A DNA stretch of 64,000 bases from a virus, in the IMG/VR virus record IMGVR_UViG_3300009177_000720. One strand, written 5' to 3'. Under the pieces are notes generated by a model that was not told where the DNA came from, did not search any database, and saw only the letters and a list, made by a program, of their open reading frames with translations. This document shows positions 17,948 to 58,345 of the stretch, piece after piece. The position numbers were made by a program, and so were the translations under genes. Position 1 is the stretch's first letter, and every line of letters begins with the position of its first letter.

Positions 17948-18524
17948 TGTTACTCCTAAATAACTTTTGGCAAATAGCTTTGCCACGCTTGTTGATTTGA
18001 TTCCATTTGATTTTAAAGGAGGTGGAATCGGTACCCCCAAACATCTTAGCGTTGGCATGAACTTCAGCCAGCCCAGCTAGAAGAAGAGTGCAAGCTTCAG
18101 GATAAGTAATGAACTCATCGATGTCGCAAGCCTTCATGGTATGAATCATCATATCCATCTTCATAAGCTTGGCAGCCGCACAACTACCTCCCACTTCCAG
18201 CCATGTCTTGGATGAGATGTCAGCATGGTTAGGAAAATGAGTTCTACCATTCTCATCGATTGACTTACAATAAGGCTTACCACAATCGTGATAAATTGTA
18301 TACTCCTCGATGATATCCTGAGGCAGGAGGGCGCTAAGAATTTGTTGATTGTATTCCGAAAGCCAATCAGGCAATCTCCAGTCTCCTGTGATTTGACCGG
18401 TTTTCAAATAATCAATCAATTGAAAAATATGCTCTTTAACCGAGAGACCATGCTGGAAAATAGACTGGCCTTTGGCTTGTTCACATTGTTGCATGTCTTG
18501 GATGAGTTGAAGCTAGGAGGGCAT
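17931..18524 (-). CDS. HD-domain phosphohydrolase with in-frame TAG at codon 4
   Basis: QSIFQH...YHDCGKP...HFPNHA; GGAGG-9nt-ATG CCC TCC TAG CTT CAA is in frame with the ORF-track ATG at 18494. Confidence 0.82.
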
Positions 18525-18525
18525 G

Positions 18526-18891
18526 TTAGAGTGCCTCCGATAGCCAAGCATTAACATCGGCTAATGTTGGGTTGTAGCTTCCAAGATGGGGTGCCCACTT
18601 TGGTGCATGTGCCTGAATAATTTGAAAGACCAAATCGGCTCTTGGAAGATTATCCTTAGCACATGCTCGCTCCACTGCATGATATGCCACGCCTCTCAAA
18701 AAGGCATAGGCTAGCAAGTGATGGCGGATATCAATTCCAACAACACGCTTGCGGGAAGCCAAGTTCCAAACGGCTTCTTCCTTCTTTGCTTTAAGAATAC
18801 GGTTCCTTGCTTTCCTTGATTCAATAGCAAGTCCCTTAATTTTACCAATCAATACAAACTTCGAATAACTGTGTTTCAGTGCGTTTTTCAT
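18526..18891 (-). CDS. basic hypothetical protein, first gene of the amber-gated operon
   Basis: AGGAG-7nt-ATG at 18891; RHHLLAYAFLRGVAYHAVE motif. Confidence 0.8.
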   Translation of the reverse strand: MKNALKHSYSKFVLIGKIKGLAIESRKARNRILKAKKEEAVWNLASRKRVVGIDIRHHLLAYAFLRGVAYHAVERACAKDNLPRADLVFQIIQAHAPKWAPHLGSYNPTLADVNAWLSEAL

Positions 18892-18995
18892 TTTACATCT
18901 CCTATAGTTACAAAACAAACAAATACGGTTAAGGTTTGTTTTAAACCAGGAGGTGCACGTGAACCAATCTATAGATAATCAGATAGCGTCTTCAT
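18888..18995 (-). promoter_or_regulatory. leader ORF with internal TAG, RAPP arrest motif and SD-sequestering hairpin (putative translational attenuator)
   Basis: MKTLSDYL*IGSRAPPGLKQTLTVFVCFVTIGDVK*; TAG 18971-18969; RAPP 18959-18948; hairpin 18952-18899; TGA overlaps the next ATG. Confidence 0.75.
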
Positions 18996-19017
18996 CTTGT
19001 TCTTATATATCCAGTTA

Positions 19018-19602
19018 TTAGTGGAATAGAATTAGCGTAGCTAATCGTTTGTTTAAGTGGGCCAAATCTTGAAATTTATTTAAATCTAACGGCATAGGTG
19101 GAAGAAATTTATTATTTAATCGGATAGTCGCTGACTCTCCTGTTAAATTTCCCGTTTGATTATAGTATTTAGTAATCCTAATATCTTTGCCACCTTTAAG
19201 GGTATAATGTAACTCCTCTTGCTGGATGGTCAAGGGCGGGAAACTTTTTTCTTTTTTAGTATTTCCTTCCTTGTAAATAGTAGTAATTTTAAAATGACAA
19301 GTGGCACACATCTTATGAACATAAGTCCAATTAGTTGTTAATCGATTAATTATGTCTTGTCCGTCAATAATTAAACCAGTACTAGCATCAATGCTGACAC
19401 TATGATTCTTGTGCTTAGAACGCAATACTCCATCCTTTAATATCATTCTGAGATGAATATTTTCCTTCCCGCTACCCCAGCGAGGTTTGGATGGCAATAC
19501 AGGGGCTAACATCCCATCAATGACAATATTCATGGTCTTACCACAAACTAAACAATTGGGGATGTAGTCTAGTAGTTCATTTGGTGTTTTGAACGTGTGC
19601 AT
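19018..19602 (-). CDS. hypothetical Zn-ribbon protein
   Basis: CLVC and CATC; C-terminus LNKRLATLILFH. Confidence 0.7.
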   Translation of the reverse strand: MHTFKTPNELLDYIPNCLVCGKTMNIVIDGMLAPVLPSKPRWGSGKENIHLRMILKDGVLRSKHKNHSVSIDASTGLIIDGQDIINRLTTNWTYVHKMCATCHFKITTIYKEGNTKKEKSFPPLTIQQEELHYTLKGGKDIRITKYYNQTGNLTGESATIRLNNKFLPPMPLDLNKFQDLAHLNKRLATLILFH

Positions 19603-21240: not shown

Positions 21241-21596
21241 TGGTGGAGATGAAGGGAGTCGAACCCTTGTCCAAGATTTGTTTGAAAGAAACTCATTCAC
21301 AAACTTAGTCAATATTAGAGTCATTGACAACTCTGAGAGAATTCGCTCTCACGGGCTAGTTACTGTTTGTTTCATTGTTAAACCCGCAACCGAATTAACA
21401 ACTAACCTTAGTGGGTTTGGTGTCCTTTGATTACCAAGATTATCTTATCTCGGACACCCAGTCAAGCTGCTAGAGCAACTGGAGCAAATGCGTTATCGTT
21501 AGCATTTATACGTTGATCACTTTTTACGAGGTTGCAATCATCCCCGGTTTGTATCATTTCCTTGAAATTCCACCCTGTCGAAACCATGACATCCCC
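21241..21596 (-). ncRNA. ssrA: tmRNA, tag peptide ANDNAFAPVALAA*
   Basis: 5' GGGGATG..GGTTTCGAC; 3' GGTTCGACTCC..CATCTCCACCA with G3.U; resume codon GCT after TAAAT. Confidence 0.96.
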
Positions 21597-21789
21597 ATGA
21601 TGCATATTCTTTTTCTTGACGTTCCATTAGTTTAGCATAAGCAATTAAGATACGAAAACCATCCCTAGCTTCAGCCTGAGTTGGCATTGCTGGATTTTCA
21701 AAACAATTCTTTAATTCAAGTGCACGAATCTCTTCGTAAGAGTGTGGCGCATCGCAATCAAATACTTCACAAACAATACAGTGCGTCAT
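21538..21789 (-). CDS. hypothetical protein whose 3' end overlaps the tmRNA 5' end
   Basis: 83-aa ORF between tRNA-Thr and the tmRNA. Confidence 0.5.
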   Translation of the reverse strand: MTHCIVCEVFDCDAPHSYEEIRALELKNCFENPAMPTQAEARDGFRILIAYAKLMERQEKEYASWGCHGFDRVEFQGNDTNRG

Positions 21790-21790
21790 G

Positions 21791-21864
21791 TGGAGCCCAA
21801 AGTCAGAATCGAACTGACGTAATCTCGTTACGAAGGAGACATAATACCACTATATGATATGGGC
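21791..21864 (-). tRNA. tRNA-Thr(CGU)
   Basis: Loop TTCGTAA; G1-C72, C2-G71; CCA. Confidence 0.9.
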
Positions 21865-21944
21865 TTAAATGAGGGTTATTACCTTTCGGGTTTACCCCAC
21901 CGTTCTGCAACCCTCTTAACAGATAGTTGAGTAATGGTTAAATA

Positions 21945-22020
21945 TGGAGCCCGCGATTGGAATCAAACCAACGACATCCTCGTTACTAGTGAGGTGCTCT
22001 ATCAACTGAGCTACACGGGC
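21945..22020 (-). tRNA. tRNA-Thr(AGU)
   Basis: Loop CTAGTAA; cloverleaf; CCA. Confidence 0.9.
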
Positions 22021-22024
22021 TTAC

Positions 22025-22098
22025 TGGAGCTGAAGTCGAGGATCGAACTCGATTTTCGTCTTTACCAAAGACGGGTAATACCATTATACTACGTCAGC
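22025..22098 (-). tRNA. tRNA-Thr(GGU)
   Basis: CGTCT-TTGGTAA-AGACG; CCA. Confidence 0.92.
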
Positions 22099-22104
22099 GT
22101 AATC

Positions 22105-22178
22105 TGGAGCTAGCGCCGGGAATCGAACCCGGTTCACCGCGTTACAAGGGCGGAATAATACCATTATACTAAGCTAGC
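22105..22178 (-). tRNA. tRNA-Thr(UGU)
   Basis: Loop CTTGTAA; CCA. Confidence 0.92.
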
Positions 22179-33342: not shown

Positions 33343-33369
33343 ACTTATTTATATATCATAAACCACTTG

Positions 33370-58304: not shown

Positions 58305-58345
58305 TTAGACTCCAATACTTATATATCCTTTTAGAAATAGGTATT

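Follow-up and report, generated by a model that had tools for sequence, protein, structure and literature searches.

The question raised by this locus is why a small leader open reading frame (ORF), already closed by an in-frame UAG, should keep the codons of a ribosome-arrest motif behind that stop. The leader lies on the minus strand of the 64,000-nucleotide (nt) stretch of viral DNA recorded as IMGVR_UViG_3300009177_000720 (the window in what follows), in a gap of 127 nt between an upstream gene, which closes with TAA TAA at about 19018 on the same strand, and the gene for a protein of 121 amino acids (aa), here called P0001. Sequence comparison and structure prediction make it likely that the leader is a translational switch, in which readthrough of the UAG by a phage suppressor tRNA would bring the ribosome to a stall on an Arg-Ala-Pro-Pro (RAPP) motif, the stall would free the Shine–Dalgarno (SD) sequence of P0001, and expression of P0001 would report the decoding of UAG. 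The switch would be a natural one and is, apparently, previously undescribed.

The leader is made up of the following parts, all positions being those of the window.

18972–18995, minus strand: first part of the leader ORF, MKTLSDYL, as re-read from the sequence.
18969–18971, minus strand: in-frame UAG, the putative gate (TAG in 36 relatives, TAA in one clade).
18960–18968, minus strand: three spacer codons, I-G-S, between the UAG and the arrest motif, as seen by comparison of relatives.
18948–18959, minus strand: the candidate R-A-P-P arrest motif, CGT GCA CCT CCT, whose CCUCCU doubles as the predicted anti-SD.
18888–18947, minus strand: remaining leader frame to the TGA, not conserved.

Re-reading of the minus strand gave ATG (18995–18993) AAG ACG CTA TCT GAT TAT CTA TAG (18971–18969), then ATT GGT TCA and CGT GCA CCT CCT (18959–18948), the frame continuing to a TGA at 18890–18888. 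The translation, MKTLSDYL-stop-IGSRAPPGLKQTLTVFVCFVTIGDVK-stop, has 19 further codons between RAPP and the TGA, and the TGA overlaps the ATG of P0001 (18891) as ATGA; this is the reading given by the initial annotation of the window. In the window and its relatives the peptide before the motif has 9–19 residues and no hydrophobic segment. The window has one match to a loose pattern (ATG..stop..R[AGS]PP), where shuffled sequences average 0.24; this lone match is not significant, and significance rests on the conservation of the leader in relatives. The motif R[AGS]PP is absent from the 10,267 residues of the window proteins, which fits the reported avoidance of such motifs.

For the comparison, 5 viral and 44 metagenomic loci were fetched and several more were added later; 34 or 35 leaders were tabulated for codon and fold statistics, and a wider reading comprised 40 leader-bearing relatives. 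These loci share ancestry, and the counts taken from them are not independent. ATG, stop and R-[A/G/S]-P-P share one frame in about 38 diverged phage loci despite indels, and the same layout stands 5′ of a gene of the P0001 family in essentially every locus with readable DNA. The conserved order is a promoter-like box, ATG, 2–13 codons, TAG, 1–6 codons, Arg, Ala/Gly/Ser, Pro-Pro, hairpin, AGGAG and ATG. The initial annotation had made its proposal depend on the conservation of the TAG and of RAPP, and both are kept in frame in nearly all relatives whose upstream DNA could be read. An in-frame ATG precedes the stop by 2–13 codons in 38 of the 40 relatives with a leader. The spacers from ATG to stop and from stop to Arg both vary in length, by whole codons only; the second, mostly of 3 codons and of 1, 4, 5 or 6 in about 11 loci, is always a multiple of 3 nt. 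The codon preceding the stop is mostly Leu (CTA, CTG, TTG or TTA), a purine follows the stop directly in 32/35 leaders, and the first codon after it is mostly ATT.

Two other uses of this stretch were considered and rejected: initiation at the AUU after the UAG, because the codon there varies (ATT, GTT, GTC, AAC, AGT, CTA and others), and a palindromic operator at ATCTATAGAT, because it is not conserved.

All six Arg codons are used in the motif (CGT 23, CGC 4, AGA 4, CGA 2, AGG 1 and CGG 1 in 35 loci), and its second position is occupied by Ala (GCN, 20), Gly (GGN, 10), Ser (4) or Asp (GAT, 1). The use of all six Arg codons, the spectrum of residues at position 2 and the whole-codon spacers argue that the peptide behind the stop is translated, and hence that the stop is read through; judged by these codon patterns, the motif behind the stop is selected as protein.

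The conserved residues are those of the RAPP-class core, i.e. R, a small residue at position 2, and P-P; RAPG and RAGP are further forms of the core in this class. Mutagenesis of ApcA, ApdA and ApdP, as described in PMC12992588, showed the Arg to be irreplaceable, the change from Ala to Gly to be fully permissive or to give stronger arrest, and Ser, Asp and Pro to be partly permissive; the position-2 residues of the leaders (Ala, Gly, Ser and, once, Asp) are all among those that permitted arrest there. The same source gives RAPP and RGPP as the most context-independent arrest cores, and also reports RAPP/RGPP upstream ORFs (uORFs) in front of genes with non-localisation functions. In a RAPP-type stall, the P site holds the third codon of the motif and the A site the fourth, and EF-P cannot relieve the arrest (PMC12992588; PMC10951233).

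If the UAG is read through, a tRNA is needed that reads it, and two candidates are encoded 3′ of the leader operon on the same strand.

16451–16523, minus strand: tRNA with anticodon CUA (amber suppressor), detected by ARAGORN and scoring 60.5 bits in Rfam.
16670–16741, minus strand: second tRNA-CUA, whose T loop is unusual, scoring 39.9 bits in Rfam and missed by ARAGORN.

The second tRNA, whose anticodon loop is CUCUAAA, is homologous to the first tRNA-CUA of the relative L014. A tRNA-CUA is present downstream on the leader strand, 0.7–3.2 kb away, in 18 relatives as well as in the window, and the suppressor tRNAs are of at least two unrelated types. Several relatives hold two different tRNA-CUA types side by side.

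The leader stop and the linked anticodon change together. A pattern scan for leaders with TAA or TGA led to a locus, L176, in which the leader MTKSFTEHFW-TAA-LHN-RGPP precedes a distant P0001 homologue and a tRNA-UUA is encoded downstream; two relatives of this locus (62–64% identity) have MTNFLTEPFW-TAA-IPI-RGPP and MTKSMTEPFW-TAA-IFN-RGPP, each with a tRNA-UUA. These scans of viral contigs returned mostly chance matches in coding DNA rich in guanine and cytosine (GC), only the L176 clade being real, and they gave no example of TGA with UCA. In total, TAG is paired with CUA in 19 loci and TAA with UUA in 3, with 0 mismatches, and the leader stop is, on this sequence evidence, most likely read by the linked phage suppressor tRNA. 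The initial annotation had regarded the leader as a sensor of termination fidelity. Its readthrough-gated design is supported, but the sensor is not a general one: because the suppressor tRNAs lie downstream in the same orientation and their anticodon co-varies with the leader stop, it is tied to the phage's own suppressor tRNAs.

In L188, a distant member of the family, the frames of the leader ATG and of RGPP differ by +1, and the linked tRNA has an anticodon loop of 8 nt, AGUUAUAG (L188:2893–2990 and L188:4437–4510). If AUAA were read as a four-base codon, the frames would be joined as MHCHS-[AUAA]-CAAERI-RGPP. This locus may be a quadruplet-decoding version of the switch, in which case the design may be keyed to other unusual tRNAs as well.

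What a ribosome could gain for P0001 by reaching the motif is suggested by the predicted structure of the mRNA.

18899–18952, minus strand: predicted SD-sequestering hairpin, with an outer helix CUCCU/AGGAG and an inner stem AAAACAAAC/GUUUGUUUU.

That the Pro codons open a hairpin hiding the downstream SD had been proposed from the sequence, and RNAfold recovers the proposed helix, pairing CUCCU (18952–18948) with the SD AGGAG (18903–18899) and AAAACAAAC (18942–18934) with GUUUGUUUU (18920–18912). From the Arg codon to the ATG, the predicted hairpin has an energy of −19.5 kcal/mol (z = −3.3); a wider piece of 151 nt gives an unremarkable fold (z = −1.0). In 31 of 34 leaders the minimum free energy structure has the Pro-Pro codons paired with the SD; the inner stem sequences differ among clades. 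In the predicted ensemble, the probability that the SD is paired averages 0.98 in the leaders against 0.73 in the 16 window genes with a GGAG or GAGG SD (Mann–Whitney p = 3e-6), and shuffles of the interior only, preserving dinucleotides, gave a mean z of −2.17 with 34/34 leaders below 0 (p = 8e-12). Across relatives, 46–57 nt separate the Pro-Pro codons from the gene ATG. The first Pro codon is CCT in 34/35 loci, as compared with 31% CCT among the Pro codons of window genes (binomial p ~1e-16); such an excess indicates a constraint at the nucleotide level beyond that for Pro, as expected if the U pairs with the A of GGAG. The leader uORF, on these models, adjoins a gene whose SD is hidden by an mRNA helix, as in the RAPP class.

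From the sequences and the predicted structures we infer readthrough, arrest, unmasking of the SD and the direction of regulation, in the following way. Ribosomes would translate MKTLSDYL and then meet the UAG. If the release factor wins, the ribosome would leave about 16 nt before the helix; while terminating at the UAG it would cover about 10–11 nt beyond the stop, short of CCUCC, so that the helix and the OFF state would persist, with CCUCCU on AGGAG and the 121-aa gene off. If instead the phage tRNA-CUA decodes the UAG, the ribosome would pass through four more codons and arrest on R-A-P-P, its P site on the first Pro codon and its A site on the second, both CCU, as for ApdA and ApdP. Because the Pro-Pro codons are also the anti-SD, the stalled ribosome would hold the 5′ arm of the helix and free the SD about 45 nt downstream. 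Repeated initiation at the freed SD would follow, and one readthrough event may license many.

The leader is not the only place in the operon where a stop stands in frame. The order after the leader, on one strand, is P0001, a 187-aa protein of HD fold, Pth2, two small ORFs and the two tRNA-CUA genes.

18526–18891, minus strand: P0001, 121 aa, the putative regulated gene; a basic helical hairpin with an invariant RHHLLAYAFLRG.
17931–18524, minus strand: gene for the HD-fold protein, with SD GGAGG, ATG at 18524 and an in-frame TAG at codon 4 (18515–18513).
17603–17947, minus strand: gene for a Pth2-type peptidyl-tRNA hydrolase (PF01981, E = 2.4e-6), with SD AGGAG, ATG at 17947 and a TAG at codon 4 (17938–17936).

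In the gene for the 187-aa protein, the SD GGAGG fronts ATG 18524 and not ATG 18494, and the sequence reads M-P-S-TAG-LQLIQD-M(18494)... in frame; an SD, an ATG, 1–3 codons and an in-frame TAG are found in 21/21 relatives. The Pth2 gene starts ATG TCT CTA TAG ATT AAA GAG GGC GAT AAG, in frame, and goes on as IKEGDKLYVIT.... Of 41 relatives, 36 share this in-frame TAG. The peptide after it, I-K-x-G-D-K-L-Y, is conserved with synonymous codon changes, and 17 of 31 loci offer no alternative start (ATG, GTG or TTG) from the TAG up to the domain. The context CTA TAG ATT is common to the leader stop and the in-frame TAG of Pth2. In the TAA clade, Pth2 has no gate of this kind. Across the window, the arrangement SD-ATG-(1–5 codons)-stop-long ORF occurs 3 times with TAG (the HD-fold gene, Pth2 and an ambiguous case at 15833), once with TGA, on the non-coding strand, and 0 times with TAA. 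In the ambiguous case (15824–15833, minus strand), an SD and ATG GAA TAG ATG precede a 114-aa ORF (15480–15824), which is either a third UAG gate, at codon 3, or a trivial overlap.

The leader, the HD-fold gene and the Pth2 gene all combine an in-frame stop with a matching phage tRNA, and the in-frame TAGs of the two genes appear to be an independent sign that UAG is decoded in the operon. These two genes would be gated more simply than P0001, by the in-frame UAG at codon 4, so that expression of the entire operon would be in proportion to amber suppression. We lean slightly towards a wider reading, in which these T4-like phages with the standard code operate a small, specialised amber regulon: 'orphan' suppressor tRNAs would open three UAG gates in one tRNA-care operon, one of the gates being an arrest-peptide amplifier that turns rare readthrough into sustained initiation.

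Several points weigh against the proposed switch and should be considered together. Short peptidyl-tRNAs may drop off, and the nascent chain at the stall would have only about 10–15 residues. In published RAPP peptides, the N-terminal context contributes to arrest (PMC10951233). The initial annotation had looked to covariation across homologues for support of the helix, and here it was disappointed: RNAalifold on a MAFFT alignment recovered only the 4 invariant CUCC/GGAG pairs, with no covariation, and an ungapped test of the flanking pairs that would extend the helix also showed none. No covariation is obtainable from the core anti-SD/SD pairs, because they are invariant, and support for the structure comes from the folds of single sequences and from the shuffles. 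In 18 further loci with a TAG leader no suppressor tRNA was seen in the sequence covered, about 11 of these spanning <1.8 kb downstream and 7 spanning 2.8–3.5 kb. The TAA cases form one clade and count as one evolutionary change, yet a change that the switch model predicts. Finally, the kinship of the loci means that the p-values overstate their independence.

The first alternative to be weighed is that readthrough is needed without a long-lived arrest, the helix being melted by ribosomes in transit or during a brief Pro-Pro pause, or P0001 being reached by termination and reinitiation at the ATGA. The very short nascent chain and the dependence of arrest strength on N-terminal context (PMC10951233) favour this, as does the overlap of the leader stop with the gene ATG. 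The initial annotation had likewise invoked coupling; the overlap is real in the window and in seven relatives (8/34 tabulated leaders), but most relatives lack it and 10/34 leaders stop directly after Pro-Pro, so that stalling, rather than coupling, appears to be the conserved route. Moreover, transit would not need the strict Arg and the small residue at position 2, which match the arrest mutagenesis reported in PMC12992588. We hold a switch without lasting arrest to be unlikely.

It is also conceivable that what the leader gauges is not how much suppressor tRNA there is but the activity of the release factor (RF), e.g. of a host RF1 that infection depletes or inhibits. Readthrough is always a competition between tRNA and RF, and prfB senses RF2 through an in-frame stop. 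However, the leader stop follows the anticodon of the linked tRNA (TAG with CUA, TAA with UUA), and since UAA is read by both RFs, a sensor specific for RF1 would not move to TAA. A release-factor gauge is for these reasons improbable.

Negative control has less still to recommend it: the stall after readthrough would trigger cleavage or decay of the mRNA, or block the message, lowering expression when suppression is high. Stalled or collided bacterial ribosomes do recruit nucleases such as SmrB (PMC10897456), and a phage tmRNA (transfer-messenger RNA) is encoded nearby. The stall site, however, is the anti-SD, and the SD about 45 nt downstream would be clear of the ribosome, which is the geometry of activating leaders (SecM, ErmCL); besides, the neighbouring genes would be gated positively by UAG, which puts the operon ON with suppression. 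We regard repression as very improbable. Hardly credible, lastly, is a purely RNA-level role, in which the UAG is the true stop of an 8-codon ORF and CGNGCNCCUCC is kept as an anti-SD or as a protein-binding RNA and never translated, since the near invariance of CCUCC at the nucleotide level and the core helix without covariation, which would suit it, are set against the switches between CGN and AGR Arg codons, the free wobble in the Arg and Ala/Gly/Ser codons, the whole-codon indels between stop and RxPP, and the match of stop and anticodon.

For the switch proposed here, the start of the transcript also matters.

19003–19019, minus strand: box AATAAC-N3-GATATATAA, conserved, a probable −10-like promoter element 5′ of the leader ATG.

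The box, as AATAAC-N2-3-GATATATAA, was found 5′ of the leader in most relatives. Where it ends 7–9 nt from the leader ATG there is no SD, and where it ends 13–23 nt away there is an SD-like purine run; this pattern of spacing suggests that the leader lies at or near the 5′ end of the transcript, and transcription of the operon probably begins shortly before the leader ATG. A sigma-70 promoter or an intrinsic terminator within the leader was ruled out, as there is no such site in 18888–19020. The sequence GATATATA occurs 5 times in the window, always on the coding strand. The other four copies (minus strand, 14849–14856, 16433–16440, 33350–33357 and 58320–58327) each lie 6–15 nt 5′ of the ATG of an ORF. 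The GATATATA box may be the promoter of this phage, and several of its genes may have leaderless mRNAs or very short 5′ untranslated regions.

As to the proteins of the operon, the AF2 model of P0001 (predicted local distance difference test score, pLDDT, 92) shows a basic helical hairpin and a small domain. A Foldseek search returned nothing at E<=0.001, the best VIA match (Z 7.3) was to generic helical hairpins and is uninformative, and P0001 has no Pfam or PHROG match. Its family is large: 87 close relatives were found by a word-indexed search, many of them on contigs of 100–500 kb, and a profile search gave 1829 clusters at E<=1e-3. A predicted complex of P0001 with Pth2 scored 0.00, which counts neither for nor against an interaction.

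The 187-aa protein (17931–18494, pLDDT 89) gave nothing significant in Pfam and PDB sequence searches. Its model resembles the 'tRNA processing enzyme' structures 3WFO–3WFS (Z 12.6–13.2, root-mean-square deviation (rmsd) ~3.0–3.3, 147–150 residues aligned), best of all residues 260–448, the C-terminal half, of 3WFQ (Z 13.2, rmsd 3.0, 147 aligned). The next matches are about 4 Z units lower (GlyRS, 9.3; the HD hydrolases PPX/GppA, PhnZ and PgpH, 8–9), small alarmone hydrolases scoring about Z 6. In its alignment, His and Asp residues characteristic of HD phosphohydrolases are invariant.

Some further features of the neighbourhood should be mentioned. A hydrophobic ORF of 37 aa lies between the two tRNA-CUA genes (16530–16643, minus strand), its terminal TAG six bases short of the tRNA. 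A weak tRNA-like element, located between Pth2 and the ORF after it (17468–17590, minus strand), scores 28.2 bits in Rfam, just below threshold, with a possible 8-nt anticodon loop and an acceptor-like 5′ strand about 50 nt upstream of the Rfam match. About 2–3 kb upstream of the leader (21241–22178, minus strand) lie the phage tmRNA (tag ANDNAFAPVALAA) and four tRNA-Thr genes, a neighbourhood kept at the same positions in L001, L002, L019, L028, L034, L036 and L050. The upstream gene P0002 has no relatives in viral contigs. Taken together, P0001, the HD-fold protein, Pth2, the tRNAs and the nearby tmRNA look like a module for the care of tRNAs and translation.

The window itself appears to come from a large T4-like phage: it contains an RIIA homologue, has 83 of its 90 long ORFs on one strand, and has a GC content of 41%; a DNA search of the phage collection gave no match. 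In the standard code, ORFs cover 91% of the window. TAG terminates 5 of the 90 selected ORFs; one of these, on the plus strand, is likely to be false, and the other four, all minus-strand genes, are followed by a backup stop 4–12 codons further on. A genome-wide reassignment similar to code 15, with many genes carrying an in-frame TAG, was not seen within the 64-kb window, the arrangement SD-ATG-..-TAG-long ORF being confined to the two operon genes and the ambiguous 15833.

If the proposed switch is true, the suppressor tRNAs of many standard-code phages acquire a purpose and a defined target, RAPP-type arrest peptides extend from the monitoring of secretion to the sensing of a decoding event, and a stop codon can be the input of a translational attenuator. 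The leader would then be a compact natural part, of about 110 nt, that reads out amber suppression, and would correspond in nature to the synthetic amber-suppression switches of genetic-code expansion. The very large and unannotated P0001 family, with its Pth2 and HD-fold partners, would be flagged as linked to suppressor tRNA biology.

A full-text literature search yielded no paper in which an arrest peptide or leader is connected with a phage suppressor tRNA, and the systems closest to the leader each share a part of it. In prfB, in the trpL and pheL attenuators and in the bldA/TTA system of Streptomyces, a special codon early in a short frame reports one factor or tRNA. Unlike the leader, prfB uses a +1 frameshift within the gene, trpL and pheL act on transcription and use sense codons, and bldA gates genes directly, without a stage of arrest or SD unmasking.

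With the RAPP-type peptides (ApdA, ApdP and ApcA, the RAGP of SecM and the Streptomyces RAPP/RGPP uORFs; PMC7897499, PMC10951233, PMC10987492, PMC12992588), the leader shares a small uORF lying just 5′ of the regulated gene, with R-[A/G]-P-P as its C-terminal core and the same range of residues allowed there, and with SecM in particular the use of a stalled ribosome to prevent an RNA helix from blocking downstream initiation (PMC10951233). It differs in that its peptide has only 10–20 residues, that the motif stands behind an in-frame stop, so that the input would be stop-codon suppression and not secretion, and that it occurs in a phage, upstream of genes that are tRNA-related or unannotated (the 121-aa, HD-fold and Pth2 genes) and not Sec or YidC. 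The leader lacks two defining features of the substrates that monitor Sec or YidC, namely a targeting segment and a localisation gene; since it has no signal peptide or membrane segment, unlike those monitors, no pulling force would relieve the arrest.

The erm and cat leaders (ErmCL, ErmBL) are likewise very short, and the stalled ribosome remodels a hairpin that hides an SD (PMC5118997); their stall needs an antibiotic in the exit tunnel, whereas the condition of the phage leader would be that the motif is reached by readthrough. In the 3′ tail of mammalian AMD1 (PMC13025110), ribosomes that have read through also reach an arrest peptide and stall, but that system is eukaryotic, lies at the 3′ end of the main ORF, represses by queueing and has no dedicated suppressor tRNA.

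The nearest relatives on the phage side are the stop-recoded phages (Borges et al., bioRxiv 10.1101/2021.08.26.457843; Peters et al., PMC9523058), in which suppressor tRNAs and in-frame stops have been proposed to time expression. The gating of ORFs by in-frame stops and phage suppressor tRNAs is thus already on record as a proposal (Borges et al.), and the TAGs within the HD-fold and Pth2 ORFs are of the same kind as those of stop-recoded genes; an arrest-peptide leader at one stop site is not described in that work. While recoded phages change many late and lysis genes, the stop is used here at a few sites in one operon.

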